The notes beneath the pieces were generated by a model. That model was not told the DNA's origin, did not search any database, and saw only the letters and a program-made list of their open reading frames with translations. Shown here piece after piece: positions 1-31,341 of a DNA stretch of 64,000 nucleotides. The stretch spans positions 1-64,000 of the forward strand of contig JAZDKZ010000007.1 in the NCBI GenBank assembly GCA_043802485.1, written 5' to 3'. Numbering within the stretch: position 1 is the stretch's first letter; every line of letters starts with the position of its first letter. A program made the position numbers and the translations under genes. This stretch comes from Candidatus Aenigmatarchaeota archaeon. GTDB taxonomy: Archaea > Aenigmatarchaeota > Aenigmatarchaeia > Aenigmatarchaeales > Aenigmatarchaeaceae.

Positions 1-3000
1 AGGGCCCAGAGGATCATTACACTCTACTTGGTAGGAGACCGAATCGGAGGCTGAGTTGCCTGTTGAGAGCGAGTTGAACTCATGTCTCCATTCTCCTGAA
101 CCATCTACCTTTTCCAGGGCCATCTCTGTCAGGAAGCACCACTGTGTTTCTCCGGTGTTCCTGATGGTGTACGGTATTGTTATGGAATCGCTCCTTGCTT
201 TCTTTCCAGATGGTGCTGTGTATGTAAGTTCAGCGTCTATGTCCACACAAGAACCCTGCTTGCACACTCCATCACCGCAGTTGGAATGGGACCACTTCAA
301 AGTTGATGTTGACGAGCACTGGCCTGACGGATAAGCTGTTTCCTCAATGATGCTGTTGCCTGGTGTGCATCCACCCTGGGTTTGTGAGCAGCAACATAAT
401 CCTGACGAGCAGCCGTCCTGGCCGATGGATGTGCCGGAGCATGTAGTTTGGGATGACCCTCCGCCCGTGTCAAATGACGCTGTCTTGACCCTTATCTCAT
501 CGCCGGCATCGTTAAGATAATACATGAACCACTTGCCAGCATCCCTGTCAAGGAAGACTGTTACCTCTTTCATATTGCCAAAGTCATACGTCTCTACTGG
601 AGAGCTTAGTTGGTCAAGAGATGACTTTAAAGCAGTCCTCACTTCAGTTGTGTGGGCTACGCGGTTCCTTATGAATAACGCAAGCTTGTCAGAGGAGAGC
701 CATGAAGGCTCGCATGCTCCGTATTCGCTCGGTGTGAGTATCCCTTTTGTAATAGTTAGACCGTCCTTGCTTGAACCCGATGCGAGACCAAGGTCCCACC
801 CAGCATTATAGCCTTTGGCAGTGTAGCAGACATACCACTTGTTGTTGGCTCTGAACGTTCCCAGTGGGAACAGCTCGTCTCCGTAGCCCCAGACAGAGCT
901 GTCAGAGTGTGACAGCACATCTCCATAATCATTAAAGTTATACCCGTCGCTTGAGACAGCTAGACGGACATCGCTGTCAACCGACTCTGAGGTCGAGCTG
1001 CCGGCATCCATGGCGCCGTAATAGAGAACAACATCGCCGTTCTCAAGGGTAGCTCCTGCAGAGAAGATGCCTTCCTCCTCGTTGTTATGAGGAAGATAAG
1101 TGATGATTGGGTTGCCGCTGTACTTGGTGAAATGAATGCCGTCCGTGCTTGTTGCCACACCAAGCGCCCTGTGGCGCGGACCACCATCAGTTGAACGATC
1201 ACCATCAGCGCCGATATAGTAGAGGAAGTACTTCCCGTCCTTTTTGACTACTGTGGTCGGCGATAACATTCCATCTAATCTAACATCCCATGAACCACCT
1301 GAACCCTCTGACAGGGCAACTCCCTTTTCTACCCAATCCGACTGTTTGGGAATTTCAATCTCCTCAGAGCCTCCTGATGTCCAGCCTGCACATTCTCCTG
1401 AAGCGAAGCTTTGCAACTTGCATTTTTCATCACAAGTTTCAGGTTCTATATATCCAGAACAGCAGCAGACACCTGATGAACACTCCCCATTATATATTTC
1501 TGTCCCTGTGCATGTTGGTTGCGTTCCTCCTCCTGTATAGGGTTGACCTACCACATAGTCATCTGGAATTTCCTCTGTTGAAACTACCCAGTTGTCAATA
1601 TATTTTGTTACAGTATAGAGTTCATCTTCTCCAATGTATGACTTGCAAGTTATACCAGTGTAATAATTACCATTAGTTCTTTGAACTTGGTTGTTTTCAT
1701 CTCTATATTTGAACTGTGCGGTATTACCAACGAAATCTATCCACAGTTCACCGTTTACCCATGCTTTGAAAACTCCATTTGAAGGGTGAATAGTCCTATA
1801 ATGTTTGATTGTCAACCACTGACCTTTAGGCAATGATTTTTCACTTGTAACGCTTTCGCCTCCACTAGCAAACCATAGATGTGGCTGTCCGTTACGCATT
1901 ATAATATACAGAGCCCCTGCATTACCTTTCAAGCCTGATACTGAATCAATTATATAATAATCGCTAAACATGTCCCAACCACCGTTAGATCCTGTTGATG
2001 TACGAACACCCAAATTGTAATCCAAAGGCAGATATATATCCTTGCGTTCCCAAATCTCAGTTAATTTGCCGTATCCCTGCTTTCCAAGATTTGAATTTTC
2101 ATCCAGCCTCAACATAACTTGCGACCTGCCATTGGTGCTGCCGTCAGCTGGTGCTTCTGCTGTACATTTCAAGCATTGCCTTCCGTGAGCCTCAACAAGT
2201 TCAGGCATATAACCCCCGCCTTGTTGTGTTACCTGTCCAACTATAGTCCAATGAGGTGCACCGTAATGCTCTGTGTTACCGTTGTTCAATGGATAAGGGT
2301 CTGTGTTAACATATAATGGTTCTTCATCAAAATCATCTTCCCAAATAATTGATGAAGTGTCAAAGTCGCCACCACCTCCTCCACCAGTACCAAAAACGCA
2401 TTCTCCAGAATAAGACGAACCTAATTGATTCTTACATGTCTGGTCGCATGATGCTGTTGTCGGGGTTTTGCATGAGCCGTCTGACTGACACTCATAACCG
2501 GATGGGCAGCCGCACTGGGAACATTTGTTGATTAATGTTCCCTGAGAGCAGTATCTCGGCTTTGTGGAGGAACACTGGCCAAATGAGGTTCCGTCAGAAC
2601 ATTCCTGCACAGCAGCAGGCTCTGTATAGCTGAACTTTATCCTGGCGCTTATCCAGTCCTCGTAGTAATCAATCCTGACAAGGTGATTACCTGCTGCAAG
2701 GTCTGCTGTGAAAGTATCCTCTGTGTAGGACCTCTTTATCCACTTGTCCAATTTCAATTGGCCGTCAATCCACACCCTGACCCCGTCATCACTGCCTAAT
2801 GTGAAGGTGTAAGTTCCAGTAGTCGGGAAGTTGATGGTTCTTCCGGACCTGAAGCCCACATGGTCATAGTAATTTCCGAAAAGCGGCTCTATGCCCCAGT
2901 CGCTGTTGAACTGCAACCTTGACTCTGTTGTCTCTGCTATCTTGTCAGTAAAGGTGTCGTCGCACCAGACCCTGTTCCACCTGTCGTTTGGATAAGAAGG

Positions 3001-6000
3001 TTCTGAAGGGCACGTCTGTGCTTGCTGGCACTGTATCTCCGGTGAGGTTATGCAGTTCCATTGGTTGTATTCGCACATGCACCAGTCCACTTGCGAGCCG
3101 TCATGACAGGTGTAATATCTCATGTCACCATAGCTGCACAATTGTTCGCCTGAACAACAGCATATTCCTGAGGAACAGCCGTCCTGGCCGATGGATACGC
3201 CGGAGCATGTTGACGAGGTTGTAACATCATCGACCAAAGGATGTGGGTAAGGGTAAGGCGTATATGTGAATCCGTCCTGTCCTAATGTTGGTGCGCGAAG
3301 GAAATAATCCACGTTTAGCGTGATTGGATTGCTTCCAATCTCAGGATAATGCACGTCAAACAAATCTGCCGTGGAAGGCACAAGCGTGTTATCGTATATC
3401 CAGACGTCATGCACCTGATACTGTGGATTTGAGTCTGGATTATACTGCCTGAGCTGTATGAAACCATTATAATCCGTACTCGGATCGTTATTGGGAACGC
3501 CATAACCGTTGTTGATGTTGTTAAAGATTATCATACCTCCACAGCAATCCTGTATCCCAATGTCTATAACGCTATTACTGAGACTTCTATCAATTGTAAT
3601 TATATTATTGTAAACTTCCATGAACTGACCTCCAACGGGACTAGGTCCAGTTTGATGATTGTGAAGCATACCATTAATCATAGTGTTATAACGAACTACT
3701 GCATGTGCTGCAGCACTTATGGTTACTGGAGAAAACCAGTTCACGAAATAGTTGTCCTCAACAACCCAAGTTTTGATTGTATACTGTCCAGCAAGGTCTG
3801 ATACGTCATCCCATACTCCAGTTCTTGAGGCAATATTAAGGGCGTACCACGCTGTAAGTCCATCCCAACCTTTTGGAACTATATTTAAATATGCAGGATA
3901 ATTCGTAAATTCACAATGGTCGATAACACCGCGGTTGTGGCCCCACACAGTAATGCCGAAGCCTGCCAAATTTCTCATATTAACATGGTCAAAACGGTAT
4001 TCTGCTGTGCCACTGGTTATTTGTATTCCAGAAGTCATATCTGGTGTTGATGGCTTTGCTTCTCTTTCCCCGACCATTTTGATGCCTGTGAAACGTGTAA
4101 GGTAACTGGATGAGCCGGAATACTCGAACCAGAGCGAGCCATTGCCTGCGGTATGACTCCAAGTTAAAGTTGTGCTCCAGGCGGTAACATGTCCAGTAGT
4201 GTCACGTAATGCCGGCGCACCGTAAATGCTGACTCCTGCGGGAACGTTAACTTTACCAAGCGGCGGAGCAGAATCAAAAACATATGTTCCTGCTGGCAAG
4301 TAAACAGCATACCCGTCTTTTGCGTTGTTTACAGCCGCTTGTATTGCCGTGTTGCTTCCGCCTGTCGCATACAAAGCTCCTATATTCCGTGTGTTCACTC
4401 CGAACACGACCGTCTTTTCAATACCTTTTCCATATACATGCAGCTCGTATTCTCCGTTCTCCAAGTTCATAGTCATGCCTGGCGCGTATGCTTTATTGGA
4501 GGAATAGAGCCAGTTCACTCCGTCGTAGATGTTCCAGTTCACTGTTCCATCGCTTGATATCTGCAGGGGTATTGATGATGTGGTATAATACTTGTTTGTA
4601 GGTCCTGCTATGCTGATCGTCGTGGCTGTTGGTGATGAAGTTGTTCCTAAAGATTGTCCGTCATTAACCAGTGGATGCGGATAAGGATAAGGAGTGTATG
4701 TCCAACCATCCTGTGCTTGATTGGGTGCTCTTAGGAAGTAGTCAACATTAAGTGTAATTGGGTTAGAACCTTCCCTATTAGATCCAGTACCCGTCACACC
4801 GGTTTTAACTTCCACCATATCGCCTTCAGGTGTCATTATGTTGTCCCATATGTAACAGTCGTGGGTTTGGTATTTTGTGTCAAATTCGTCCGGAGTGCCC
4901 TGTCTTAGTATAACGAGACCTTCCCAATCACCACTTACATCAGTAGGAGAACTATAGCCTATTCCCTCATTGTCAAATACAATTGATGCACCAGCTTCGT
5001 TTTGTATAGCGAATTTATTATCAGATCTGGTAATGGTATTGCCATAAACTTCTTGCAATCTTGAGCCTAAGCCCGTAGCTGTGTTGTCATGATTGTTGAC
5101 TGCTACATAAGTGTTCACCACTGTATTGTACCTGAAAACCTTGTGCGCTCCGTTGTTTGATGAGCATGCATCAAAATACCCCGAAAAATAATTGTCTTCT
5201 ACAAAAACTGTTCTGTGGGTATATTTTCCTGCAATACTGCTTATATCATCTTCCCAACTATTAGCTCCACTAGTAACTATCGCATAATGTACACTATTTT
5301 CATCCCAACCGCCTATAAAATTATACGGATCATTTTCAAAAATATTATGGTCCACGACGCCCCTCGCTCTCTGAAACTGCACAGTTGCAGTACCGATTAT
5401 ATTGCGGAAGTAGCAGTGGTCGATGCGGTATTCTGAATTGTCATTAATGATTATGCCTTCTTGTGTGGCTCTTGTATTTGAAGGGTCTATGTCCCTATAC
5501 CCAACCATCTTGATGCCGGAGAATCTAGTAATGTAGCTTGATGTACCAGAAAACTCGAACCAAGCCGTCCAATCCCCTGCATCATAATTCATAGTAAGAA
5601 CAGTTTTCCAATCACCATCATAGGAGCCAAAGATGCTAATGCCGGCAGGGACTTTGACTGATGTCCAAGGAGATGCAGCATCAAAGGCATATGTTCCTGC
5701 AGGAATAACAACAGCATCGCCGGGATTGGCCTGGTTGACTGCCTGCTGTATGTCTGTATTGCTGCCGCTTGCAGCATATATTACATTATTATAAGAGCCA
5801 ATATCCTGGTTGTAAGATGTTGATGTTCCTCCTGAGGTTGTGAGAGAGCCTGAAGAATCTGCCACACAATCCCACGAGCCGAATCCCAATTCATTGCATT
5901 CACTTTCACATTTATTCTCAGGTTCAATTCCAGTGTCATAGCAGCAACACAAACCAGAGGAGCAGCCGTCAGGGCCAATCGATTCCCCTATGGAGCATGT

Positions 6001-9000
6001 TGGTTGTGATGTTCCTGGTGTTGTTGGGTATGAGGTTGACGGCTGGCATTCTTCTATGTCCTCGTCGGTCAGTAGATAATATTTGGATGCTTCAAGGGCC
6101 TGGTTCTGCAATGACTGCCCGTTGCTGCTCCAATAGGCCCATACCTGGAAGCCAACTTTGTTTTCAACAAAAATATTTATCATTTCAGTTAGGAATCTGA
6201 CCTGAAGCGCATCAGTAGACGTTTTTCCACCAGTACCATCCCCTGGTGCCATTGTATTATCTGTTTTCCATGCGAACGTCTCTCCGCTCCAGCACCTCTC
6301 CGCGCCAAACAGCTCGACTGCCGGCTTTACCCATTTGGTTTCGTACCAGTGGGCCTTGCCCTCAGGCGTAAGCCCCATATCCCAACTATTCTCGAATAAA
6401 TATGGGTGGACTATGTCGAATATAACGTTAGGCTTGTTGGTTATTCCCAAAGACTGAAGCTCGTTATACCATTCATTGGCATCAACATAACTGAACTGTC
6501 CCATCGGGTATATTACCACCCTGTTAGGATCTATCTTATGGATTTCGTCTATAAGATAAGCGAATGCCTGCTGGAGTTTTGTGCGGTCGGTTATTGGTCC
6601 TACCGGACCATCCAATGCCCAAGTATCATATCCAACCCAAGTTTCTGATCCAGCGTCGTGGGCAGGCTCGCCGAATATTGCAAAGGCCGCTACCCTGTCG
6701 TCGTCCTTGTATTGCTGAGCCAATGCTTTCCAGTTGTTGACCCAAGCCCAGCTGCCTGCATAGTTTTTGCACGATAATCCATTATTTTGAAGAAGCAGTA
6801 TGCCCTTGGCACCGTAAGAGCTTATGATTTCCAACACCTTTTTCATCTTTGCCTCGTCGTATATTGAACCTCCATATGTCTGTGCGCCTGGAGCGTCAGG
6901 AAAAAAGAATCCGAGCCTGACAGCATTGACATTGTATTTTTCAAATCTTGTTTGAATCCAGCTTTGGTCCCACACCTCTGGTTCGCCATCATTATAATAT
7001 ATCAGGTAATCGTCCCCGAGACCTGTCAGATAGAGGCTGCTGTCGCATTCCTCTGTAGTTGCTTCTGTAGGAGTCTGGGTTGATGCTCCCAATGACAGGT
7101 ATTCGTCAACCAAACCTGCGGCAATCTTAGGGTCGTCCCATCCATTTCCGTCTGCATCTTCGTATCTGAAAATACCCCAATTTATTCGTCCTTCGTACCA
7201 TCCCCATGCCTTTGGCCCGTCCTTGTCCATGTAAACATAGACGAATATGTTCCTCTTCTTGGTCTCCTCGCCGAATATCCTAAAGTAGTCGGCCTGCTGC
7301 TCTTCTGAAAATGTAAGTACGACATTGTTCCAATTAGTATAGCTCTCGGTGGGGCAGCCTGTCTCACTAATCTGTATTGGCTTACCCTTTGATGCTGGAA
7401 TCAGTATTTCGTCCAAATCTGTTATCAACCTTTCTCTCATCTTTGGTAAATTATTATAGAATTCGTTTGAATTGTAATCTTCGAGGTAGATGTGCATATC
7501 CAGGACATCGACATTGTCTATGAATCTGCTAATCCAGTTCTTCCTGTCTTGTATGTAATAGCCTGCAGAGTCCTCGCCATAGTATTTCCACGAAAGGCCG
7601 ACCGTCACCTTGTGCGTCGGGTCCTTCTGCTTTATGTACTGGAGGCCGTAGTTTAGAACCTCTATGAGATTGTTGCACTTGTCTTCTGGGAAATCAGGAT
7701 CCATGCATGGCTCGTTGCATATGTCATAGCCCCATATGCCCTCGTGACCTATAAGATCATCAAGATTCTTGCTATCTATGTATGCTTTCATCTGTTCTTT
7801 GGAATGAAAATACGTCTGACTGTCATACTCACTTTCGTACATGGCGCCTCCGAGAGTGAACATTATTTGCATGCCGTTGTCCCTCGCTGTATTGGCCCTT
7901 TCAAGCATGTTGCCGGGAGACATTCTAACCCTGGTGACGCCTATGCTTTTGGCCAATGTCCAGAAGTCGGGTCTATATTCATCAAAATTTTTCCAGTTTA
8001 TTCCAAAACCTTCTCCAGAGGAGGAAGAGCCACCTGATAAGCATTCGCCAGAACCAAACCCTCGGTCAACACACTCTTCGTTGCAACTCTGCATAGGTTC
8101 CACATAGCTGAACGATACTTGAGCATCACCGCCGTTCTCGTAGTAATCTATTCTAACATTGTGGTAGCCTTGTGATAGGTAAGCATCAAAGGTGTCAGTG
8201 GCATAGGACCTGTCAGACCACTTGTCCAGTTTCAATTGGCCGTCTATCCAAATCCTTACACCGTCATCACTGCCTACGGTAAAGGAGTATGTTCCTGTTG
8301 TTGGTAAATTCAAACTCCTGCCTGACATGAAGCCAATGTAATCGGAATAGCCTGTTATCAGTTGACTAGTACCCCAGTTATTGTCAAACTGTATTGATGA
8401 TTCGTCTGGGTTATCAGCCAGTTTCTCATTAAAGTCATCATCGCACCACACCCTGTCCCATCTGTCTGCAGGGTATGAGGGCTCTGAAGGGCATATGTTT
8501 GTTATGATTCCAGAGCAACAGCATTGTCCTGAAGAGCAGCCGTCCTGGCCGATGGACGTTCCTGAGCATGAAGATTGTGTTCCTGTTGTTATCTGACTTT
8601 CTACAGCAATAGTTTGAGACCATATTTCACCAAGTCTGTTCAGGTTCCATGTTCCATGATCCCAAAGCTGTCCTGGCATATGGTTCCAAACACCATCAAC
8701 CTCCGCATTGTTAAGCCAACTCGTTCCTACGCCATACGTCTCAGAGAACTCTTCTACGTCTCGTATAAAAGCTTCTATGTTCGGATTGTCAATATGTGTT
8801 CCTACCTCGTCCCAAACAACGATTTTTCCCTTGTCTAAAAGGGATTTAACTCCGCTATCATATAGATATTGGTTGTAAGCAATATTTTTAGCTTCCTCTC
8901 TCTTCTCTTGTGTTAAGGGGTTACCGTCATTCCAGTATGCCACATTGCCTTCTTCCCAGCTAGGCGGCACTGAATTCCAGAGTTCGTAGTAATAATGGAA

Positions 9001-12000
9001 AGAAAAGTAGAGTCTGGAACCGGACGGAACATTGAATCTGTGAGCATGTTCTGCAATTTCGTTCAAATCCCAAAACGGAACACTACTCACACTAAAGACA
9101 GCATTAGGTTTAACCTGTGAGATTTCAGCCATAAACCTGTTACAGAAGGTAATATATTTATCCCAAAAATCTGCGGTAGCATAGCTGTTTTCATTACTGC
9201 CCTTAACCTCGTTCATTATCTGAATAATATCTGGGTTCAAACCCTCCACGTAGGTGCCATCCCAGTATCCGCCAACAATAGCTCCTTTACTCCATTCGAT
9301 ATACGTGTCTTGCATACCGTTGGTGTTGTAAATCACTTCTGTTTGCTTTATCACATGTACATCCCAATCGGTGTCTAACTTAAAAGTCCATGGGTAATTC
9401 TGCATGTACACCAAACCGCCTAAACGATGAATTTCTTTGGCATAACGCTGTTTATGTTCTGTCTGGCTTAATCCGTTTTTTTGTATTGGGAGTGGATTCC
9501 CCCAGAGATCAGTGTAAACCCCGGTGTAAATTCCGTTAGCACCCAACCCCATAACGTGCTGTGCTATATCTTCAGGCATAAAAGTATTGATGCTGCCAGC
9601 GCCACCGCTACCAGCAATAAACTTCCATTCACTAGGTGAATTAACCAATTCAGAAGTTACAATTTCCCCTCCAAGAACTATGTCCATTATGTCCTGCGAT
9701 TCTGAGGCAGTATACCAGTCCTTGCCTTCAGTATAATCATAATACCAGTCATAATACTCGCCTTCCAGTGCTCCCCAATGATGCCACTGCCTACCAGCCA
9801 ATTCCTTCGAGTCCATATAATCAACCTGATTCTGCAACTGCGTTCTCCACGTTGTCGGGTAAGCTTCCTTTCCATACTCTTGTGGGTCGAATCCATACTC
9901 TCCAATTATAAGTGGTTTACCGAAAGTATCGACAAGTCTGGGAACAAAAGTATCTATCCAGTTGGACCAGCTGTCAAAATCATGTCTTTTTGTTATGTAG
10001 GAATGGTCCTCCCAAACAACGCCGTCGCGATTTACAGGTTGAACATTATTGTAGTAAAGAGCTAAACCAGAACCTGTTGTCGAAGGGGTTCTTGTAACGT
10101 AAGGCTTGTCTATTATAATTATGTTCTTTGCTCCTGTAGCGTGAATAGCGTCCACGACATTCTCCATCAACTCGCTATAAGTATGACCAAGGTGTCTGTT
10201 CATGCCCACATCGTCTATGTACTCTCCTGCTAGGGGCTCGTTCATAATGCTGAACAACACGTAGGGATTGTTCTTGTAGCGATTAGCCAATGCTACCCAG
10301 GCATTTATGAAAGCCTGCCTGCTTGAATCCATTTTCGAGACATCCGTGTCAAAGAAATCTATCACAGTCTGGGATGACAATGATGAATATGAGCCTTGCC
10401 ATACCCAATATGGAACAGTGTAGCTTGCACCGGAAGAGAAACCTCCCATACCCAAAACAACGTACATATTATTCTGGCTAGCCCAATCAACGTATACGTC
10501 AAGCCAATTTTCAAGATATTCTGTATCAACAATATTTTTTGTTGGCATCACGTCTTTTAACAGTATGAGATGGACTTCAAAGTAGTTGGCCCCGTTAGCC
10601 TTCATGGTTTGAACATCAGTCTCAGTGAACCATGTCTGTTCTGGACTGTCTGCCCCATACGAATGATCCTGCTCATTTCTTCTTTCATTTCGATCCACCT
10701 GAGCTCCCTTAAGGTACACTACGTTTCCACTGGCGTCGCAGAGCTTTGTGTCGCAGACATGAAGCACTGCTGAAGAGGGGCCTGTTGACGAACCTCCTTC
10801 GTTTGAAGAAGTTGGTAACGATTCCAGCGATAAATACTCCTTAACCAAACCTGCAGCAAGCTTGGGCTTATTCATACCATTGACGACTTCCGGCCTGAAC
10901 AGACCGAATCTTTCAGTTGACCACTGATTTTCAAACAAAACATAAATGTTGACGAATATGTTCCTTTTCTTGGTCTCCTCACCGAGGATTCTAAAGTAAT
11001 CAGCCTGCTGTTGCTCAGTGAATGTCAGAATCCTTCCATCCCAAAGTTTGTAATCTTCGGTTGGTAAACCAGCTGCTATTTCAATGGGCTTTCCTTGGCT
11101 TGCTGGAATTAGGACTTGGTCAAGATTCTTTATTAGCCTTTCTCTAAAATTGTCCTCGCTACTTGAGAAGACTTCAATATTGAAATATGAGTAGCTGAGA
11201 ACATCCACAACATCTATAAACCTATTGATCCAATCCTTCCTAAGCTCTATGTAATCGCCTTGAGGGTCTTCATAGTATGCACCAGCAGAATCCAGCTGTA
11301 TTGTGACGGGATGTGTCGGGTCTATGCTTTTAATATATTGGGCGCCCCAACGAAGAACTTCTACAAGATTATCTGTAGCTGCATCATGATTGTTGAAGGG
11401 CTCATCACAGAGATCGTAGCCCCATACTCCAGGATGGTCCTTGTACTGAGCCAAATTATATCCGTCAATGTGCGCTTTCATCGCGGTTATGTTATCATAC
11501 CACGAATTGCAATTATCAGGGGTGTGGCATGAGCCTAACCCAATTTTTATTTTGACTCCATGTTCTGCAGCTTGGTCAGCCCATTCTCTTCTAGGGGCTC
11601 CGTTGAGCCTGTCAGTACCCATATAATCTAAAAGTGTCCAAAGGTCAGGCTCGTAAGAGGATGATTCAGAATAATAATTCGCATAAACGCCAAAACCACC
11701 TTCACTACTATTTGTTCCAGTTTCATCTACACATTCCCCAGAAGTGTATCCCTGGTCGAAGCACTGCTTGTTACAACTCGAAGTATATGATGTGTAGCTG
11801 AATGAAAGCCTTGCGCTCCAACCGTTCTCATAGTAGTCAATCCTGATATCGTGGTAACCTGCTGTCATGTATGCGTTGAATGTGTCAGTTTTGTAGTTCC
11901 TGTCACCCCAACTGTCCAAATTTTTCTGGCCGTCGATCCAGACCCTTACACCATCATCACTGCCAACAGTAAAGGTGTAAGTTCCCGGCTGGAAGTATAT

Positions 12001-15000
12001 CTTTCTGCCGGACCTAAGCCCGACTTCATCGTAGCTGGTTCCATCCACTAGGCCAAGACCCCAGTCATTGTCAAACCAGACGTTCGGTTCTGATGTAACA
12101 GCCAACGCATCTTTAAAGTCTTTGTCGCACCATATCCTGTCCCATATGTCAGTCGGATATGACGGCGCTGACGGACAGGTGCCTGTGGCGATATTTGTAC
12201 AACAGCAAGTTCCTGACGAACAACCGTCCTGGCCTATGGATGTGCCTGAGCATGAAACTGTCGAAGTCTGGGTTGTTTGTGTAGTTGCTCTAATTGTAGT
12301 ATCGCTTCCATCTTTTCGTATTGTGTATTGGTCGCCTCCCCACTTGACTGTAATAACACCGCTTCCCCAATCAGAAACAAGATAGGGGCTGTCAAACAAC
12401 TTGTAGGAAAATGAATCACCGTCTATGGTATATTTTGTGGGCGACGTTATTGTCTCGCCAAAGGTATTCACATAGGTGACCCTGTCGCCTGAGGCCGAGA
12501 CTGCATTATTCTTGATGTCTGCCTTGAACTCGCTGAAGGATTTGCCGTAATCGTCAGCATCCCTCATCTCAACGATTATCCTGCCATTTGATAACGGATT
12601 GCTGACTGCAACAAAAGTCTTGCCTTCTTGGACGAATGTCCAGCCACTCTCCGTGGCCTTTGTAACGCCAACATAGTTTATTTGCTCGTTTCTGGATGTT
12701 ATCAGAACGTTCCTATATTGTACTGCATCGGTCTCGTCATAGAAGTATTCATCGAACTCGTCACCGCTGAATATAACCTTTCTCGGGGATGTATCAAAGC
12801 TGATATCCCAGATGTGCGACCTGGCTCCGGTATTCGTCGTGCTTTCCATCAATGAATCGCGATAATCACCTTGAGCTGTGGCCAAGACAGCGTGAGGTGT
12901 CACATAATAATAGGTGGGTGCTATGTCACGCCTTGACTCAAGTACAAAGGGTTGTTTGTTTCCATTGGCTATGTCCTTTACTATCTGTGGCACCTCGTAG
13001 GATGAATACCAAGCGAATATGTTTATGAAAGGCGTGCTTCCTCCATAATCAGCAGGCGTGTCAAAATAAACTTGGGAAATTCTGTAAACATAGTCAGCGC
13101 TCTGGTCAACAACATGAATTCCGTAATACCTGTAGAAGGGTCCACCACGTATACCATTAACATTAATTAAAGCATGCTCGGCAAGCAGCATGTCCAGCAC
13201 AGCCTCTGCTTTTTTCCTTAGGGTCGGGCTGTCAGCAAAATCGTACAGGTTCCATAGAACTCTGAACTCTGAACCCATATAGGTCGGAGAGTTCAGCTCA
13301 TAGTAATGTCCCTCTAGCCTGTCATCAAGGAAGTTAATCAACCATGCCTCGTTTTGACTATTGCTGCCACCTGTTATCATGTTTCCGAAATAACCTGCAG
13401 AAACTATCATGGCGTTATGATTCTCGGAATAACCAAAATTGGGGTCTTCTGTCATCGGGGTTCCAGCCCTGTTGGAAAGCACGTTCTTCATGTTGTTTTC
13501 AGCGGCTGCTGTCAGTTTGCCGGTTCCCTTGAACTGGAAATAGGCACGTATAATGAATGTGGTGACAAAATCCCAGTCATGGGAAGCACTGTTGGCTTCT
13601 CCCCAGGGATGAGGATATTTCTTATTGCTTGTTGTTCCATACTTGTCTGTTCCACGCACATCGGTTGTCTGCTCTAACCAATCGTTTGCCTCATCAACCC
13701 TGTGATTCAGATAAAGTCTTGCTGTTGCAGCCATGGTATTCCTTTCCCACCATTCCGATTCAGCAATAGAATTAGTATCCCAGTCAGCAATGTCCTGCAA
13801 TATCCCGGAGGTCTGAACAGTAACGCTATCTCCAGCACACTCTCCAGAAGCAAAGTCCCTGTCATTGCAGGCCTGTTCGCACTGAGAAATTACCGCAGGC
13901 TCCTCATAACTGAAGGAAAGCCTTGCAATACCCGTGTTCTCGTAATAGTCAATCCTTATGTCGTGATAGCCCTGTTCAAGTTGAACTTCAACTGTTTTCT
14001 CTTCATAGTTTCCATTCTCCCAATTGTCCAATCTGACGATCCCGTCAATCCACATCTTAACTCCGTCATCCGAACCGACGGTGAAGGTATACATGCCTTC
14101 TTTTGGCAAATAGACCTGCCTGCCTGACCTTAGACCGACATTGTCCGAACCGGTACCGCCCAATGAACCCAGGCCCCAGTTGTCGTTGAACTCCAGGGTT
14201 GATTTTGAAGTTGCACCAAGTTTATTGTTGAAGCCCTTATCGCACCAAACCCTGTCCCAACTGCCTGTTGGATAGGACGGTTCGGAAGGGCATGCGCCTG
14301 TTGTTGTCTCTTTGCATGTACCGTCGGAAAGACAAGTATACCCAGAAAGGCATCCACACTGCTGGCAATTATTGATTAAGGTTCCGCTGCTGCAGTATTT
14401 TGGCTTAGTTGATGAGCATGAGTTGTAAGATGTTCCGTCGGAACATTTTTGTGGTTGTATGACATCAAATATTGCCTTGATGTCACCGCTTGCCTGAGCT
14501 GTAAATGTTACGGGATTGGATGATATAGACGGTGCTCCTCCACTGGGCTGGAATCTTTGGAAAGAGTAGCCAGAAGACGGTGTTGCACTTATTGTTACAG
14601 AAGAGCCTTGGTTAACAGTTATGGATGATAGTGATGTTGTGCACTGGCCATTAATACACATGGTTCCAGAGCCTTGCCCTACTCCGAATGAGTATGTAAC
14701 CTGATTCGTGGCGAATATTGCCTTGATGTCACCGCTTGCCTGAGCTGTAAATGTTACGGGATTGGATGATATAGACGGTGCTCCTCCACTGGGCTGGAAT
14801 CTTTGGAAAGAGTAGCCAGAAGACGGTGTTGCACTTATTGTTACAGAAGAACCCTTGCTGACTGTTATGGATGACGTGCCACTAGTACACTGACTATTGA
14901 TGCACATGCTTCCTGAACCTTGTCCTACTCCAAAAGTGTAGGTTATTAAACCACCGCTACAGCCAGAGACACCACACGTACCTCCAGTAGGAACAGAACA

Positions 15001-15459
15001 ATAACCAGGAACACCTACTGACCAACCTGAATGCGCATCACAGTAGATGTTGTAATAACAGGTGCTGCCTGTTTGGCAATATCCATTATCACATGTACCT
15101 GTTGTCACACAATTACAGTTTAAAGTTCCTGCAGTAGTATCTTCACGGTATCCGCATTTGTCATAGTAACAATAACCGTTATTGGTACCGCCTATGCACT
15201 GGACAGACGCAGGATTTGTGAGCGAGCAGTGGGCTCCGCACAGGCTTGCCTTGCAAGTGCATGCGCCAAAGCTGCAACTACTTCCTACACAGTCTCCTGG
15301 ACAGTATGTCATGGTCCATCCAGCTTCTGTGCTGCACTTTCCCGGGCATTCTGAATCAGATGTACAGGAATCTGCCGCATCCGCTCGCCAAGTTTCTGAG
15401 AAGCTAAAAAGAAACAGAAAAAGGATTAAAACTATTAGGAAAGACTTTCTGCTAATCAT
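1..15459 (-). CDS. Giant secreted multi-domain carbohydrate-active surface protein, at least 5,153 aa, 3' end beyond window start
   Basis: Manual translation: ATG at 15459 (ATGA overlap with the upstream stop), signal peptide MISRKSFLIVLILFLFLFSFS. The frame stays open to position 1 (...SYQVECNDPLGP). The ORF track lists no closed minus-strand ORF in this frame, consistent with no internal stop. Confidence 0.95.
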   Translation of the reverse strand, partial: MISRKSFLIVLILFLFLFSFSETWRADAADSCTSDSECPGKCSTEAGWTMTYCPGDCVGSSCSFGACTCKASLCGAHCSLTNPASVQCIGGTNNGYCYYDKCGYREDTTAGTLNCNCVTTGTCDNGYCQTGSTCYYNIYCDAHSGWSVGVPGYCSVPTGGTCGVSGCSGGLITYTFGVGQGSGSMCINSQCTSGTSSITVSKGSSVTISATPSSGYSFQRFQPSGGAPSISSNPVTFTAQASGDIKAIFATNQVTYSFGVGQGSGTMCINGQCTTSLSSITVNQGSSVTISATPSSGYSFQRFQPSGGAPSISSNPVTFTAQASGDIKAIFDVIQPQKCSDGTSYNSCSSTKPKYCSSGTLINNCQQCGCLSGYTCLSDGTCKETTTGACPSEPSYPTGSWDRVWCDKGFNNKLGATSKSTLEFNDNWGLGSLGGTGSDNVGLRSGRQVYLPKEGMYTFTVGSDDGVKMWIDGIVRLDNWENGNYEEKTVEVQLEQGYHDIRIDYYENTGIARLSFSYEEPAVISQCEQACNDRDFASGECAGDSVTVQTSGILQDIADWDTNSIAESEWWERNTMAATARLYLNHRVDEANDWLEQTTDVRGTDKYGTTSNKKYPHPWGEANSASHDWDFVTTFIIRAYFQFKGTGKLTAAAENNMKNVLSNRAGTPMTEDPNFGYSENHNAMIVSAGYFGNMITGGSNSQNEAWLINFLDDRLEGHYYELNSPTYMGSEFRVLWNLYDFADSPTLRKKAEAVLDMLLAEHALINVNGIRGGPFYRYYGIHVVDQSADYVYRISQVYFDTPADYGGSTPFINIFAWYSSYEVPQIVKDIANGNKQPFVLESRRDIAPTYYYVTPHAVLATAQGDYRDSLMESTTNTGARSHIWDISFDTSPRKVIFSGDEFDEYFYDETDAVQYRNVLITSRNEQINYVGVTKATESGWTFVQEGKTFVAVSNPLSNGRIIVEMRDADDYGKSFSEFKADIKNNAVSASGDRVTYVNTFGETITSPTKYTIDGDSFSYKLFDSPYLVSDWGSGVITVKWGGDQYTIRKDGSDTTIRATTQTTQTSTVSCSGTSIGQDGCSSGTCCCTNIATGTCPSAPSYPTDIWDRIWCDKDFKDALAVTSEPNVWFDNDWGLGLVDGTSYDEVGLRSGRKIYFQPGTYTFTVGSDDGVRVWIDGQKNLDSWGDRNYKTDTFNAYMTAGYHDIRIDYYENGWSARLSFSYTSYTSSCNKQCFDQGYTSGECVDETGTNSSEGGFGVYANYYSESSSYEPDLWTLLDYMGTDRLNGAPRREWADQAAEHGVKIKIGLGSCHTPDNCNSWYDNITAMKAHIDGYNLAQYKDHPGVWGYDLCDEPFNNHDAATDNLVEVLRWGAQYIKSIDPTHPVTIQLDSAGAYYEDPQGDYIELRKDWINRFIDVVDVLSYSYFNIEVFSSSEDNFRERLIKNLDQVLIPASQGKPIEIAAGLPTEDYKLWDGRILTFTEQQQADYFRILGEETKKRNIFVNIYVLFENQWSTERFGLFRPEVVNGMNKPKLAAGLVKEYLSLESLPTSSNEGGSSTGPSSAVLHVCDTKLCDASGNVVYLKGAQVDRNERRNEQDHSYGADSPEQTWFTETDVQTMKANGANYFEVHLILLKDVMPTKNIVDTEYLENWLDVYVDWASQNNMYVVLGMGGFSSGASYTVPYWVWQGSYSSLSSQTVIDFFDTDVSKMDSSRQAFINAWVALANRYKNNPYVLFSIMNEPLAGEYIDDVGMNRHLGHTYSELMENVVDAIHATGAKNIIIIDKPYVTRTPSTTGSGLALYYNNVQPVNRDGVVWEDHSYITKRHDFDSWSNWIDTFVPRLVDTFGKPLIIGEYGFDPQEYGKEAYPTTWRTQLQNQVDYMDSKELAGRQWHHWGALEGEYYDWYYDYTEGKDWYTASESQDIMDIVLGGEIVTSELVNSPSEWKFIAGSGGAGSINTFMPEDIAQHVMGLGANGIYTGVYTDLWGNPLPIQKNGLSQTEHKQRYAKEIHRLGGLVYMQNYPWTFKLDTDWDVHVIKQTEVIYNTNGMQDTYIEWSKGAIVGGYWDGTYVEGLNPDIIQIMNEVKGSNENSYATADFWDKYITFCNRFMAEISQVKPNAVFSVSSVPFWDLNEIAEHAHRFNVPSGSRLYFSFHYYYELWNSVPPSWEEGNVAYWNDGNPLTQEKREEAKNIAYNQYLYDSGVKSLLDKGKIVVWDEVGTHIDNPNIEAFIRDVEEFSETYGVGTSWLNNAEVDGVWNHMPGQLWDHGTWNLNRLGEIWSQTIAVESQITTGTQSSCSGTSIGQDGCSSGQCCCSGIITNICPSEPSYPADRWDRVWCDDDFNEKLADNPDESSIQFDNNWGTSQLITGYSDYIGFMSGRSLNLPTTGTYSFTVGSDDGVRIWIDGQLKLDKWSDRSYATDTFDAYLSQGYHNVRIDYYENGGDAQVSFSYVEPMQSCNEECVDRGFGSGECLSGGSSSSGEGFGINWKNFDEYRPDFWTLAKSIGVTRVRMSPGNMLERANTARDNGMQIMFTLGGAMYESEYDSQTYFHSKEQMKAYIDSKNLDDLIGHEGIWGYDICNEPCMDPDFPEDKCNNLIEVLNYGLQYIKQKDPTHKVTVGLSWKYYGEDSAGYYIQDRKNWISRFIDNVDVLDMHIYLEDYNSNEFYNNLPKMRERLITDLDEILIPASKGKPIQISETGCPTESYTNWNNVVLTFSEEQQADYFRIFGEETKKRNIFVYVYMDKDGPKAWGWYEGRINWGIFRYEDADGNGWDDPKIAAGLVDEYLSLGASTQTPTEATTEECDSSLYLTGLGDDYLIYYNDGEPEVWDQSWIQTRFEKYNVNAVRLGFFFPDAPGAQTYGGSIYDEAKMKKVLEIISSYGAKGILLLQNNGLSCKNYAGSWAWVNNWKALAQQYKDDDRVAAFAIFGEPAHDAGSETWVGYDTWALDGPVGPITDRTKLQQAFAYLIDEIHKIDPNRVVIYPMGQFSYVDANEWYNELQSLGITNKPNVIFDIVHPYLFENSWDMGLTPEGKAHWYETKWVKPAVELFGAERCWSGETFAWKTDNTMAPGDGTGGKTSTDALQVRFLTEMINIFVENKVGFQVWAYWSSNGQSLQNQALEASKYYLLTDEDIEECQPSTSYPTTPGTSQPTCSIGESIGPDGCSSGLCCCYDTGIEPENKCESECNELGFGSWDCVADSSGSLTTSGGTSTSYNQDIGSYNNVIYAASGSNTDIQQAVNQANPGDAVVIPAGTYAFDAASPWTSVKVPAGISIFGSYDGDWKTVLTMNYDAGDWTAWFEFSGTSSYITRFSGIKMVGYRDIDPSNTRATQEGIIINDNSEYRIDHCYFRNIIGTATVQFQRARGVVDHNIFENDPYNFIGGWDENSVHYAIVTSGANSWEDDISSIAGKYTHRTVFVEDNYFSGYFDACSSNNGAHKVFRYNTVVNTYVAVNNHDNTATGLGSRLQEVYGNTITRSDNKFAIQNEAGASIVFDNEGIGYSSPTDVSGDWEGLVILRQGTPDEFDTKYQTHDCYIWDNIMTPEGDMVEVKTGVTGTGSNREGSNPITLNVDYFLRAPNQAQDGWTYTPYPYPHPLVNDGQSLGTTSSPTATTISIAGPTNKYYTTSSIPLQISSDGTVNWNIYDGVNWLYSSNKAYAPGMTMNLENGEYELHVYGKGIEKTVVFGVNTRNIGALYATGGSNTAIQAAVNNAKDGYAVYLPAGTYVFDSAPPLGKVNVPAGVSIYGAPALRDTTGHVTAWSTTLTWSHTAGNGSLWFEYSGSSSYLTRFTGIKMVGEREAKPSTPDMTSGIQITSGTAEYRFDHVNMRNLAGFGITVWGHNRGVIDHCEFTNYPAYLNIVPKGWDGLTAWYALNIASRTGVWDDVSDLAGQYTIKTWVVEDNYFVNWFSPVTISAAAHAVVRYNTMINGMLHNHQTGPSPVGGQFMEVYNNIITIDRSLSNSVIDIGIQDCCGGMIIFNNINNGYGVPNNDPSTDYNGFIQLRQYNPDSNPQYQVHDVWIYDNTLVPSTADLFDVHYPEIGSNPITLNVDYFLRAPTLGQDGFTYTPYPYPHPLVDDVTTSSTCSGVSIGQDGCSSGICCCSGEQLCSYGDMRYYTCHDGSQVDWCMCEYNQWNCITSPEIQCQQAQTCPSEPSYPNDRWNRVWCDDTFTDKIAETTESRLQFNSDWGIEPLFGNYYDHVGFRSGRTINFPTTGTYTFTLGSDDGVRVWIDGQLKLDKWIKRSYTEDTFTADLAAGNHLVRIDYYEDWISARIKFSYTEPAAVQECSDGTSFGQCSSTKPRYCSQGTLINKCSQCGCPSGYECQSDGSCKTPTTASCDQTCKNQLGSSYSGECVFGTGGGGGGDFDTSSIIWEDDFDEEPLYVNTDPYPLNNGNTEHYGAPHWTIVGQVTQQGGGYMPELVEAHGRQCLKCTAEAPADGSTNGRSQVMLRLDENSNLGKQGYGKLTEIWERKDIYLPLDYNLGVRTSTGSNGGWDMFSDYYIIDSVSGLKGNAGALYIIMRNGQPHLWFASGGESVTSEKSLPKGQWLTIKHYRTIHPSNGVFKAWVNGELWIDFVGNTAQFKYRDENNQVQRTNGNYYTGITCKSYIGEDELYTVTKYIDNWVVSTEEIPDDYVVGQPYTGGGTQPTCTGTEIYNGECSSGVCCCSGYIEPETCDEKCKLQSFASGECAGWTSGGSEEIEIPKQSDWVEKGVALSEGSGGSWDVRLDGMLSPTTVVKKDGKYFLYYIGADGDRSTDGGPRHRALGVATSTDGIHFTKYSGNPIITYLPHNNEEEGIFSAGATLENGDVVLYYGAMDAGSSTSESVDSDVRLAVSSDGYNFNDYGDVLSHSDSSVWGYGDELFPLGTFRANNKWYVCYTAKGYNAGWDLGLASGSSKDGLTITKGILTPSEYGACEPSWLSSDKLALFIRNRVAHTTEVRTALKSSLDQLSSPVETYDFGNMKEVTVFLDRDAGKWFMYYLNDAGDEIRVKTASFDTGGGSSQTTCSGTSIGQDGCSSGLCCCSQTQGGCTPGNSIIEETAYPSGQCSSTSTLKWSHSNCGDGVCKQGSCVDIDAELTYTAPSGKKARSDSITIPYTIRNTGETQWCFLTEMALEKVDGSGEWRHEFNSLSTGNSASDSVSYQVECNDPLGP
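480..1350 (-). other. Five-bladed beta-propeller glycoside hydrolase-like module (GH43/32/130-type), boundaries approximate
   Basis: GSWDVRLDGMLSPTTVVKKDGKYFLYYIG...ALGVATSTDGIHFTKYSGNPII; LAVSSDGYNF. Confidence 0.8.
1545..2360 (-). other. Concanavalin-A-like jelly-roll / polysaccharide-lyase-like module, boundaries approximate
   Basis: IWEDDFDE start; LPKGQWLTI...NGVFKAWVNGELWIDFVGNT; YIDNWVVS end. Confidence 0.6.
2626..3012 (-). other. PA14 domain 4 of giant protein
   Basis: GTYTFTLGSDDGVRVWIDG...NHLVRIDYYED. Confidence 0.9.
3235..4380 (-). other. Right-handed parallel beta-helix module 2, boundaries approximate
   Basis: IQAAVNNAKDGYAVYLPAGTY cap, same rung pattern and the same GSNPITLNVDYFLRAP...TYTPYPYPHPLV ending as module 1. 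Confidence 0.85.
4668..5790 (-). other. Right-handed parallel beta-helix module 1 (pectate-lyase-like), boundaries approximate
   Basis: IQQAVNQANPGDAVVIPAGTY cap, RIDHCYF / VVDHNIF / VEDNYF / VFRYNT rungs, ending YTPYPYPHPL. Confidence 0.85.
6070..7035 (-). other. GH5-like module, boundaries approximate
   Basis: NAVRLGF, WKALAQQYKDDDRVAAFAIFGEP, IHKIDPNRVVI, DIVHPY, WSGETF. Confidence 0.75.
7092..8010 (-). other. Clan GH-A TIM-barrel module A2 (paralog of A1, both catalytic Glu present), boundaries approximate
   Basis: WGYDICNEP, LDMHIY, KPIQISETG; shares EQQADYFRI.GEETKKRNIFV and K.AAGLV.EYLSL with module A1. Confidence 0.8.
8104..8493 (-). other. PA14 domain 3 of giant protein
   Basis: GTYSFTVGSDDGVRIWIDG...GYHNVRIDYYENGG. 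Confidence 0.9.
8610..9630 (-). other. Divergent GH5-like (clan GH-A) module, boundaries approximate
   Basis: IQIMNEV, FSFHYY, IVVWDEVG motifs. Confidence 0.7.
9690..10770 (-). other. GH5-like module, boundaries approximate
   Basis: LHVCDTKLCDASGNVVYLKG start, SIMNEP (Glu 10237-10239), EDHSY, PLIIGEYG (Glu 9898-9900). Confidence 0.85.
10830..11700 (-). other. Clan GH-A TIM-barrel module A1 (nucleophile Glu appears missing), boundaries approximate
   Basis: WGYDLCDEP acid/base motif; KPIEIAAGLPT where the paralog has KPIQISETGCPT. Confidence 0.75.
11794..12177 (-). other. PA14 domain 2 of giant protein
   Basis: GTYTFTVGSDDGVRVWIDG...GYHDIRIDYYENG. Confidence 0.9.
12300..13800 (-). other. Putative alpha/alpha plus beta-sandwich glycan-active module (heparinase II/III-like?), boundaries approximate
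   Basis: Motifs YSENHNAMI, YELNSPTY, LWNLYDFADSPTLRKKAEAVLDMLLAEHA, GIRGGPFYRYY; family assignment is inference. Confidence 0.45.
13906..14292 (-). other. PA14 domain 1 of giant protein
   Basis: CPSEPSYP..WDRVWCD...YTFTVGSDDGVKMWIDG...HDIRIDYYEN..ARLSFSY, the PA14 SDDG/YYE signature. Confidence 0.9.
14468..14850 (-). repeat. Tandem 82-aa beta-rich repeat (InlB-B-repeat-like) with a 137-bp identical DNA duplication
   Basis: 14468-14604 is identical to 14714-14850 (offset 246 bp). Encodes SSVTISATPSSGYSFQRFQPSGGAPSISSNPVTFTAQASGDIKAIF twice. Confidence 0.9.
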
Positions 15460-15881
15460 GGCATATCACTTGGCAGAGTCATGGGTGGTGAGTCTGGAGG
15501 CATTTCCTCTGAATCAGTCATAACCATGCCGCACATGCAAATGTCCCTACACTGCTCCTCGTCTGCACTGTAATGGCACTTGCAGAGCATGTACAGGTTG
15601 TCCTGTGAAGTACCGCCCTTTTCCATGCACCCGTCTATGGCAATGCCCGGATCAAGAGAACCGTCCTTGTCAGCGTCAAAGTTGTCTATGACGACAAAAT
15701 TAACGTCATTCCTGCAATTGCCCAGAAGGCGCTTGCAGCTGCTTGATTTTACAGCCTCCAGGCTTATGACACCAGAAATATTGAACCAACTACCGTAGAA
15801 CAAGCCAACTACAGATAGGAGAACTATGGCAGCCACTACAACTATTACCAAAACGCTTATTGGGAGCTCGATACCTTTCAT
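15456..15881 (-). CDS. Class III signal peptide (pilin-like) Cys-rich protein
   Basis: MKG-IELPISVLVIVVVAAIVLL N-terminus; DADKDGSLD Ca-loop-like motif; several Cys; stop overlaps the giant ORF start. Confidence 0.75.
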   Translation of the reverse strand: MKGIELPISVLVIVVVAAIVLLSVVGLFYGSWFNISGVISLEAVKSSSCKRLLGNCRNDVNFVVIDNFDADKDGSLDPGIAIDGCMEKGGTSQDNLYMLCKCHYSADEEQCRDICMCGMVMTDSEEMPPDSPPMTLPSDMP

Positions 15882-17106: not shown

Positions 17107-17509
17107 GAGCTCTCTGTTTAAATCCTGTATCCTTTAGTAATGACGTTGATACTTCATTCAAAGCATAAGAAATGACAGCCTTATATCTAGTCTTTTTCCA
17201 AGACCTCAAAAAAGCTTTTGTTAGTTTTGTGGCAACCCCTTTATTACGATATTTCTTGACCACGTAAACCATCGCCAATTCTATCATCTTACCACTATTC
17301 AAAATTCCTTTTTTGAATACTATGTCGCCATAAAGATATCCCACTATTTCCATATTATCTTCTGCAATCCAAATTAGATTTTTGTCTCTATTGAAAATTT
17401 TTAAAAAATCTTTGGAAGTTTCTTTATCTTGTTTCAATTCTTTAGAAGCTATTTCTGAGAGCCCTGCCAAGAATTCTGCATCTTTTTTTCTAAATCTTCT
17501 GATTTTCAT
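17078..17509 (-). CDS. GNAT family N-acetyltransferase
   Basis: MKIRRF N-terminus; VYVVKKYRNKGVATKL acetyl-CoA motif; AT-rich. Confidence 0.85.
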   Translation of the reverse strand: MKIRRFRKKDAEFLAGLSEIASKELKQDKETSKDFLKIFNRDKNLIWIAEDNMEIVGYLYGDIVFKKGILNSGKMIELAMVYVVKKYRNKGVATKLTKAFLRSWKKTRYKAVISYALNEVSTSLLKDTGFKQRAHVYYLEKKL

Positions 17510-31338: not shown

Positions 31339-31341
31339 AAA

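Follow-up and report, generated by a model that had tools for sequence, protein, structure and literature searches.

The window analysed here, 64,000 nucleotides at the start of contig C7 of a Candidatus Aenigmatarchaeota archaeon (class Aenigmatarchaeia; genome G000, 768,849 bases in 7 contigs, 89% complete), carries at its left end a minus-strand frame that stays open for 5,153 codons from its ATG and meets no stop before base 1. Judging by its predicted domains, the encoded protein (hereafter, the giant) is a multicatalytic chain of the carbohydrate-active enzyme (CAZyme) type, with at least two CAZyme-type modules in one polypeptide. It comprises ten enzyme-type modules of five folds: five GH5-like barrels, a heparinase-III/PL33-like module, two beta-helices, a jelly roll, and a propeller. 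All ten lie between the halves of split eight-cysteine domains, termed clasps, and all four PA14 domains lie outside them. The giant is probably a secreted, polymorphic enzyme array, likely associated with pili, that binds and cuts surface glycans or the capsule of host or neighboring microbes.

The gene runs off the end of C7 and was therefore omitted from a list of open reading frames (ORFs) without open ends. The initial annotation, made from the sequence alone, had described a single chain of at least 5,153 amino acids missed by this ORF track, with a signal peptide, four PA14 domains, and about ten enzyme modules of five folds. All these elements were recovered: the frame is open at the contig end, the sole strongly hydrophobic stretch of the giant is its N-terminus, the PA14 domains exceed the Pfam cut-off, and each of the five folds found support. 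The features of the locus are listed below in the order of transcription; clasp halves were located by a motif scan and PA14 domains by Pfam.

15958..17106 (-): DNA methyltransferase gene, conserved flank of the island
15456..15881 (-): pilin-like gene, 141 amino acids, with MKG and a hydrophobic helix by eye; its stop overlaps the start of the giant (ATGA)
1..15459 (-): giant frame, at least 5,153 amino acids, 3'-open at the contig end; probable last 114 amino acids at G000:C3:28890-29231 (-)
15379..15459 (-): predicted Sec signal peptide, about residues 1-27, from hydropathy, no predictor run
14950..15378 (-): Cys-rich N-terminal region, in part common to the Cys/Big_1 protein on contig C1
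14464..14946 (-): two divergent InlB B-repeats (PF18998, E 6e-16)
13897..14298 (-): PA14 domain 1, outside the clasps
13837..13881 (-): clasp 1, N-half (C-x3-C-x9-G-x-C)
12295..13818 (-): heparinase-III/PL33/PL8-like module (alpha/alpha + beta-sandwich), 508 amino acids; invariant N680-H681 and Y727
12199..12252 (-): clasp 1, C-half (C-x9-C-x4-CCC)
11788..12183 (-): PA14 domain 2
11731..11775 (-): clasp 2, N-half
10816..11706 (-): barrel B1, GH5-like; acid/base E1353 kept, nucleophile Glu missing
9670..10776 (-): barrel B2, GH5 (Pfam); E1741, E1854
8605..9657 (-): barrel B3, GH5-like; E2084, E2218 by motif; common to G002 and P0088
8515..8568 (-): clasp 2, C-half
8095..8499 (-): PA14 domain 3
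8041..8085 (-): clasp 3, N-half
7084..8022 (-): barrel B4, GH5-like; E2583, E2699; 47% identical to B1
6064..7062 (-): barrel B5, GH5 (Pfam); E2931, E3060
5941..5997 (-): clasp 3, C-half
5866..5910 (-): clasp 4, N-half
4660..5808 (-): right-handed beta-helix BH1; some members of its family match Pfam Beta_helix
4390..4638 (-): small beta-rich domain, probably Ig-like, which precedes the beta-helix in stand-alone homologues too
3226..4389 (-): right-handed beta-helix BH2, 67% identical to stand-alone protein P0019
3154..3207 (-): clasp 4, C-half
2620..3018 (-): PA14 domain 4
2398..2448 (-): clasp 5, N-half
1552..2364 (-): jelly-roll module, PF14099 polysaccharide-lyase-like, by feature clusters and a G002 relative
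1459..1512 (-): clasp 5, C-half
1390..1434 (-): clasp 6, N-half
472..1368 (-): beta-propeller module, GH32/GH130/GH117-like (Pfam GH32N, E 2.8e-8)
388..441 (-): clasp 6, C-half
1..372 (-): Cys-flanked beta module, truncated at the contig end; resembles CARDB at E 0.08 only; present twice in the G002 orthologue

A split cysteine domain encloses the enzyme modules

The N-half of the clasp has the motif C-x3-C-x9/11-(G/W)-x-C, and the C-half has the motif C-x9/10-C-x4-CCC. N- and C-halves alternate strictly along the giant (6 of 6), for which the chance in random order is 1 in 924, and the clasps enclose 295-1,054 amino acids with one to three modules each. A motif scan of eight proteins found 18 N-C pairs among 19 C-halves; the lone unpaired C-half occurred in a protein starting without a signal peptide. 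The 4,579 frames of G000 contained no further C-half beyond those of the giant, and the C-half profile matched 4 of 371 genomes of the class.

The two halves are 3 amino acids apart in protein P0059 and 6 amino acids apart in G109, in which a weak clasp-profile match (E 4e-4) turned out to be an empty clasp; therefore, the clasp domain also exists empty. Seven of its eight cysteines are invariant in 14 aligned copies, and the eighth is nearly so. The empty clasp had no Pfam match; its model, with a predicted local distance difference test score (pLDDT) of 82, shows a single helix with three strands, and the insertion site falls in the loop of the first hairpin. Of its 27 fold matches at Z≥2, 26 were defensins or similar small Cys-rich peptides. 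Like defensins and other cysteine-stabilized alpha-beta folds, the clasp is a small Cys-rich domain of a helix and a sheet, with a CxxxC helix; unlike them, it is split by 281-1,054 amino acids of enzyme modules and presumably serves as a scaffold rather than a free peptide, and the match reaches Z 3.1 at most. We infer that the separated halves pair by disulfides around the payload.

Enzyme modules and their catalytic residues

Comparison of the giant with itself by phmmer and blastn paired B1 with B4 and BH1 with BH2. B2 and B5 matched Pfam GH5 (E 1.4e-19 and 5.3e-7, respectively), and a profile built from B1, B4, and 16 homologues matched solved GH5 mannanases (best E 7.7e-9). Single-sequence searches of the PDB gave marginal matches at best for B4 (E 0.045) and nothing of use for BH1. 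B3 fell into GH5 clusters by language-model features (0.94), its sole GH5 support beside the Glu motifs. Both Glu motifs, acid/base and nucleophile, are kept in B2-B5, i.e., in four of the five barrels, and the Glu pairs of B4 and B5 are invariant or nearly so in family alignments. The nucleophile site of B1 reads PIEIAAGLPT versus PIIIGETGCPT in the family, and B1 is a probable pseudo-enzyme. Thus, of the five clan GH-A barrels proposed initially, all have a GH5-like fold, but one lacks the nucleophile Glu.

Sequence searches of Pfam, NCBIfam, and the PDB gave no match for the module following PA14 domain 1. Its AlphaFold model, based on a 14-sequence alignment (pLDDT 84.7, predicted template modeling score 0.90), retrieved by Foldseek heparinase III, PL33 hyaluronan lyases, chondroitinases, alginate lyases, and dermatan-sulfate epimerase (E 6e-6). 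The best structural match had Z 9.8 and a root mean square deviation of 5.3 Å over 371 residues, and the fold matches share 6%–12% sequence identity. According to the model, this module has the two-domain (alpha/alpha)+beta-sandwich fold of uronic-acid lyases such as heparinase III, PL33, PL8, and PL17. Asn680-His681 and Tyr727 are invariant in all 14 aligned sequences; we assume that such residues are catalytic in heparinase-III/PL33-type lyases.

In the beta-helix family, 29 of 94 aligned members matched Pfam Beta_helix, and the family profile meets alginate epimerases at the N-terminal cap only. The jelly roll was placed in polysaccharide-lyase clusters by language-model features (0.96) and is 24% identical (E 2e-8) to a G002 module matching PF14099. 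The propeller, in addition to GH32N, gave weaker matches to GH43, GH130, and GH117. Several of the payloads, or cassettes, represent enzyme families without a sequence match in Pfam, NCBIfam, or the PDB. The heparinase-like module, for which the initial annotation had suggested structure prediction with Foldseek as a check, was confirmed at the level of the modeled fold, and the two beta-helices, ConA/lyase-like jelly roll, and GH43/32/130-like propeller of that annotation agree with these results.

The loss of the B1 nucleophile and the deviation of both beta-helices from their family at conserved polar residues, together with four PA14 domains and the link to a pilin, could be understood if the giant were mainly an adhesin, in which captured enzyme folds recognize glycans and cutting is minor or serves only for detachment. 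We regard this as quite unlikely in view of the Glu pairs kept in four barrels and the strictly invariant Asn-His and Tyr of the lyase-like module.

PA14 domains and other non-enzymatic regions

All four PA14 domains exceed the Pfam cut-off and contain the motif GSDDG, the Asp-Asp of which we take to be a calcium motif. This PA14 subtype was matched in 11 of the 371 genomes of the class. Among genomes with a name, those of Ca. Aenigmatarchaeota contain the closest PA14 scaffolds, in accordance with the DPANN archaeon deduced in the initial annotation. The same subtype was seen in secreted proteins labeled as Patescibacteria, Saccharibacteria, Methanobacteriota, and uncultured archaea (L033, L034, L035, L037, and L038), some of which bear other hydrolase-like domains.

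No usable family match was obtained for the PGxGYW domain, the C-terminal beta module, or the N-terminal Cys region. The PGxGYW domain occurs duplicated at the ends of arrays (G000:C3:28890-29231, L031:9395-9835, and the N-terminus of P0059) and is a candidate anchor or docking module.

Completeness and continuity of the gene

The left end of C7 has no exact overlap of at least 4 nt with any other contig end of G000, and a single aligned contig reaches 179 nt beyond base 1. At the end of contig C3, a 5'-open frame of 114 amino acids, 42% identical to the PGxGYW domain of G002, is followed by pcm, ribose-1,5-bisphosphate isomerase, and form III RuBisCO, in the same order as in G003. Sequence comparison suggests that this frame is most likely the C-terminus of the giant; the link relies on synteny and homology because the contig ends have no exact overlap. 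Extension of the contig to the stop and any anchor had been recommended initially; a probable end was placed on C3 by synteny, but direct overlap was missing, and the C3 segment contains neither a membrane helix or anchor nor an ATPase. Two other frames were rejected as continuations: that of C4 (4,407 amino acids) resembles by eye the Ig-like giant at the right end of C7, and contig C5, with a frame of 261 amino acids, is joined to C1 by an in-frame overlap of 8 nt.

Contigs of three runs, which come from a groundwater and a biofilm study, covered 30, 30, and 29 of the 30 bins of the gene, and a fourth run covered 10. Run X4, with 0.08 of the sequence words only, was not used. The runs listed as matching the gene included no RNA run and are uninformative on expression. 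Two indels were listed in the gene across runs, both of 3 nt, and 19 listed substitutions touch 18 codons (12 synonymous, 6 missense, and 0 stop), the list comprising 40 of 125 differences. A divergent allele block with a 3-nt insertion was observed within barrel B3 (window positions 9085-9361) in three runs.

Of the 18 module junctions, 11 were bridged by 24 listed of the 186 aligned contig pieces from runs X1-X3. Joints and loose ends in the same runs show alternative linker combinations (2450-3154 and 14411-385; ends 141, 443, 3152, and 3209). One joint leads from position 3154, where clasp 4 ends, to position 2450, where clasp 5 starts, and skips PA14 domain 4; the further joints at 385, 443, 3152, and 3209 are all located at clasp halves. 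They may represent strain variants or further copies in the assembly gap. Such positions support swapping at clasps, yet leave room for a chimera, in which shorter arrays of strains or paralogues would have been stitched through repeated linkers, the real proteins having about 2,000–2,500 amino acids as in G002. No single contig piece spans the whole gene, five junctions in succession, from BH1 to the propeller, lack a bridge among the listed pieces, and the best-covering run may be the source sample itself. We nevertheless consider an assembly chimera very improbable, given the bridged junctions, the clasp halves that stay in register throughout, and a roughly even depth over the gene, apart from the B-repeat and a few short spikes. 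Moreover, the longest exact repeat within the gene is 137 nt, whereas contig ends elsewhere in the genome overlap by 141 nt, which points to the largest k of the assembler and counts against a repeat-driven chimera. Even if the chimera were real, the clasp scaffold and swapping would stand.

Proposed pilin link and a variable genomic island

Directly upstream of the giant lies the 141-aa pilin-like gene, whose MKG and hydrophobic helix we take to be a class III signal; the protein had no match in Pfam or NCBIfam. Its paralogues are present in a pilin-like gene cluster on contig C6, and G000 encodes a prepilin peptidase. In G002 and G001, arrays begin with a fused pilin head of the same type (E 7e-11). 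No pilus ATPase or platform gene was found in the island of the giant gene. Since the giant has its own signal peptide and no pilin fusion, its connection to a pilus is deduced from gene order and from relatives.

The DNA methyltransferase gene is adjacent to pcm in four of six relatives (G003, G004, G013, and G015), in which the island is empty. In G001, a 552-aa gene with a pilin head, a Cys module, and one clasp with a barrel-like payload is located between the methyltransferase and pcm. G002 has a pilin gene followed by an array of about 2,530 amino acids, spread over two contigs overlapping by 141 nt, with a PGxGYW-repeat domain, two PA14 domains, a GHL15-like barrel, a metallophosphoesterase, a lyase-like jelly roll, and a lyase-like module 83% identical to that of the giant. 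Its second array (2,379 amino acids), headed by a pilin, contains GH5 barrels, two PA14 domains, B3, and an M64 peptidase and is followed by a subtilase and pcm. The arrays of G002 also carry an M14 peptidase, and the payloads of the two island arrays are largely different from those of the giant. A third G002 array (2,114 amino acids) lies directly upstream of a tandem pilin cluster. The order FEN1, methyltransferase, pilin, and array is the same in L031. On sequence grounds, cassettes appear to be swapped between congeners at this variable island. A GNAT gene (window 17078-17509, minus strand) separates FEN1 from the methyltransferase, which are adjacent in G003 and L031.

Depletion of N-glycosylation sequons

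The giant contains 3 N-x-S/T sequons against 51.6 expected, and none of 200 shuffles was as low. The reversed motif and five control motifs occur in it at 0.8–1.1 of expectation, and in 135 cytoplasmic-like proteins sequons occur at 1.03 of expectation. Seven of eight other clasp-array sequences are also depleted. In the ten closest stand-alone comparisons, all ten of their sequons are absent at the aligned sites of the giant. Stand-alone homologues of the beta-helices and of B1/B4 show no depletion. G000 encodes AglB, and its Ig-like giants show a 2- to 3-fold enrichment in sequons (2.8- to 3.1-fold for those at the C7 right end and on C4). Three Cys-rich secreted proteins of about 900–1,000 amino acids, two of them in the pilin-like cluster on C6, contain zero sequons. 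Large secreted proteins of G000 were seen to form a sequon-rich class (observed-to-expected ratio, O/E, 2–3.5) and a sequon-free class (O/E near 0, often Cys-rich).

From these sequence data, we take the loss of sequons to reflect selection that keeps an exported protein free of N-glycans, perhaps since it would otherwise bind or cut itself. Set beside the enrichment in other giants, sequon loss divides the secretome into two classes and points indirectly to export.

Origin of the cassettes

The 150 best of 1,020 matches to the B4-B5-BH1 region were inspected; most of them had a single such module, and three had clasps. The closest stand-alone proteins are 64% identical for the lyase-like module and B5 and 67% identical for BH2. 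Of the 371 genomes of the class, 2 contain the B5 family and 8 the beta-helix family; in the seven other genomes with beta-helix homologues, neither a clasp nor sequon loss was found in the stretches examined. In the B5 tree, the copy of the giant and two other clasp-borne copies fall into different supported clades amid unclasped proteins, and a single clade of scaffold-borne B5 domains was rejected (p-AU 5e-96) for 32 of 79 domains, a subset picked after a quick tree, under LG+G4. The B5 family would thus have entered the scaffold at least twice.

Many cassette homologues look, in our estimation, like Bathyarchaeia proteins; of 30 proteins checked for an organism name, P0224 alone carried one. 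Bathyarchaeota rank second among gene donors to the Aenigmatarchaeota phylum, for which a symbiotic life was argued (PMC8407114). B5 homologues were found at 14 metagenome loci, 5 of which were long enough to inspect. Two of the five are situated amid glycosyltransferase and DUF2206 genes, one of these together with a GDP-mannose dehydratase and a UDP-GlcNAc epimerase, and one of the five is near TFIIB. Such stand-alone GH5-like genes inside glycosyltransferase clusters with DUF2206 were observed at L138:1-20957 and L149, where they represent a possible glycan-editing step. The GC content at third codon positions ranges from 0.32 to 0.62 per module, against a genome mean of 0.53 with a standard deviation of 0.09, and is too noisy to be used for dating the captures.

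A broader scenario of polymorphic enzyme display, which we offer tentatively, is that the symbiont captures glycan-editing enzymes from other archaea, possibly from surface-glycan loci of its hosts, inserts them into clasp loops, strips them of sequons, and carries them on a type IV pilus.

Proposed function

The giant would be exported by Sec with almost no N-glycosylation. Disulfides would then close each clasp, so that payloads loop out like the charms of a bracelet, and the chain would be attached to a type IV pilus or kept close to it, either directly or via the co-encoded pilin. The PA14 domains and the inactive barrel would hold the glycan, while the GH5-like barrels, the lyase-like modules, and the propeller cut it, clearing the way to the host envelope. 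Stand-alone enzymes of other archaea may have supplied the payloads, and exchange through recombination at the clasp halves would alter the range of attackable glycans. A role against host glycans or extracellular polymeric substances (EPS) is what the sequence best suggests.

The array could instead digest biofilm EPS or detrital polysaccharide, with the sugars imported for glycolysis and glycogen and no special role at the host surface. Such nutritional scavenging agrees with two MFS transporters and a ROK kinase in the genome, with genes for GH57, glycogen synthase, debranching enzyme, PGM, TIM, and FBPase 8–20 kb from the giant, with a biofilm metagenome as one of the studies with matching contigs, and with a mix of folds suited to mixed polymers. 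However, neither a transporter typical of polysaccharide utilization loci nor an ABC permease was found next to the gene, and the 89%-complete genome as a whole likewise yielded no ABC permease. Of the six relatives checked, four have an empty island and two a reshuffled one, and the M64 and M14 peptidases and the metallophosphoesterase of the G002 arrays fit an attack on the cell envelope better. Scavenging as the main function is therefore unlikely.

Several observations weigh against the function in binding and cutting surface glycans that we prefer. Its support consists of sequence and models, and feeding is possible because of the MFS transporters, the ROK kinase, and the glycogen/glycolysis cluster. 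The clasp model covers the empty clasp alone, its likeness to defensins is weak, Foldseek returned nothing for it at E≤0.001, and some payloads of relatives sit outside clasps. Activity of the beta-helices is uncertain because an Asp conserved in 84 of 94 members of the family is absent from both copies; BH2 also lacks an Arg kept in 90 of 94. The giant, with its own signal peptide, is not fused to a pilin, and 7 of the 18 module junctions had no bridge among the listed contigs. Clasp protein P0041 shows no sequon depletion, and stand-alone homologues of the lyase-like module and B5 are partly depleted (O/E 0.26 and 0.44, respectively). The direction of cassette transfer relies on an unrooted tree, and the labels among 120 listed beta-helix homologues are one each of Bathyarchaeales, Promethearchaeota, Aenigmatarchaeota, and Fervidobacterium.

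Other genes of the window and the genome

A cluster at 23995-36609 of the window encodes a glycosyltransferase, GH57, glycogen synthase, a cupin GPI-like protein, TIM, FBPase, debranching enzyme, aldehyde dehydrogenase, and PGM. An 885-aa S-layer-like protein is encoded at 47765-50422 (minus strand), and an 814-aa protein at 56603-59047 (plus strand) showed a weak intein-splicing match (E 5e-6, below the cut-off) and no other family. Elsewhere in the genome, G000:C1:2-3073 (minus strand) encodes a Cys-rich Big_1 protein without sequons, which appears to continue on the left end of C5 through the 8-nt in-frame overlap.

Comparison with known systems and implications

Cellulosomes hold many glycan-cutting modules together with binding modules at the cell surface by non-covalent docking. 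The giant likewise combines many cutting and binding modules, but its assembly is covalent and set by the gene, and no Pfam match to cohesin or dockerin was obtained over the known 5,153 amino acids. The cellulosome-like assembly of the initial annotation is therefore better described as modules covalently set into split disulfide domains. The interpretation given there was supported in part; the variable island, pilin link, swapping, sequon purge, probably inactive B1, InlB B-repeats, and clasps were absent from it.

The multicatalytic CAZymes CelA and CbXyn10C/Cel48B of Caldicellulosiruptor and the flavobacterial CelAly (GH5 + PL31) have two catalytic domains (PMC13235733). They share with the giant several catalytic and binding modules per secreted chain and the combination of hydrolase and lyase folds. 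The giant differs in its ten modules of five folds, split-disulfide insertion, payloads varying among congeners, and origin in an archaeal genome of 0.77 Mb. For other DPANN genomes, single extracellular glycoside hydrolases and a lyase were reported (PMC8561730).

Nanohaloarchaeal SPEARE-type proteins are Ig-rich and membrane-anchored, with a C-terminal VirB4/TraG-like ATPase, and were proposed to be devoid of other enzymes (PMC10266531). Both they and the giant are Sec-exported DPANN proteins of very large size with a presumed role at the host surface; unlike them, the giant has no Ig tandem repeats, membrane anchor, or C-terminal ATPase in its known parts, and its sequons are depleted. Two SPEARE-like frames were noticed in G000: C7:112570-130047 (plus strand; 5,826 amino acids, 3'-open) and C4:2-13222 (plus strand; 4,407 amino acids, 5'-open), the latter ending by eye in a membrane helix and an ATPase-like domain. 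They probably represent one or two SPEARE-type proteins, perhaps with more than 10,000 amino acids if joined.

The Archaeovorin/Dockerin giants of Omnitrophota contain glycan-active domains and were proposed to attach to and degrade prey walls (bioRxiv 10.1101/2023.11.21.568195). They differ from the archaeal giant in being bacterial, at least 30,000 amino acids long, and equipped with transmembrane and SecA-like parts; PA14, DPANN, and Aenigmarchaeota go unmentioned in the main text of that paper. Type IV pilus-like (CCP) loci with coiled-coil proteins were described in cluster-2 DPANN, including Aenigmarchaeota, and proposed to function in host contact (PMC11291902), whereas the island of the giant is a pilin-linked enzyme array with no ATPase or platform gene. 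Literature searches brought up, among the papers listed, no description of the giant protein or the clasp scaffold; supplementary CAZyme tables could list the genes.

The hosts of Aenigmatarchaeota discussed in one study have been inferred only (PMC8407114). How DPANN archaea choose and approach their hosts is a long-standing question, for which this locus provides testable parts. The ten modules can be expressed separately; their substrates would name the target glycans, and the host lineage may be revealed by their close stand-alone homologues. As a natural scaffold for loop display, the split clasp accommodates from 3 to more than 1,000 residues and is relevant to protein evolution and engineering. 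If the display of captured enzymes is true, the list of cassettes would record which hosts the archaeon can breach.

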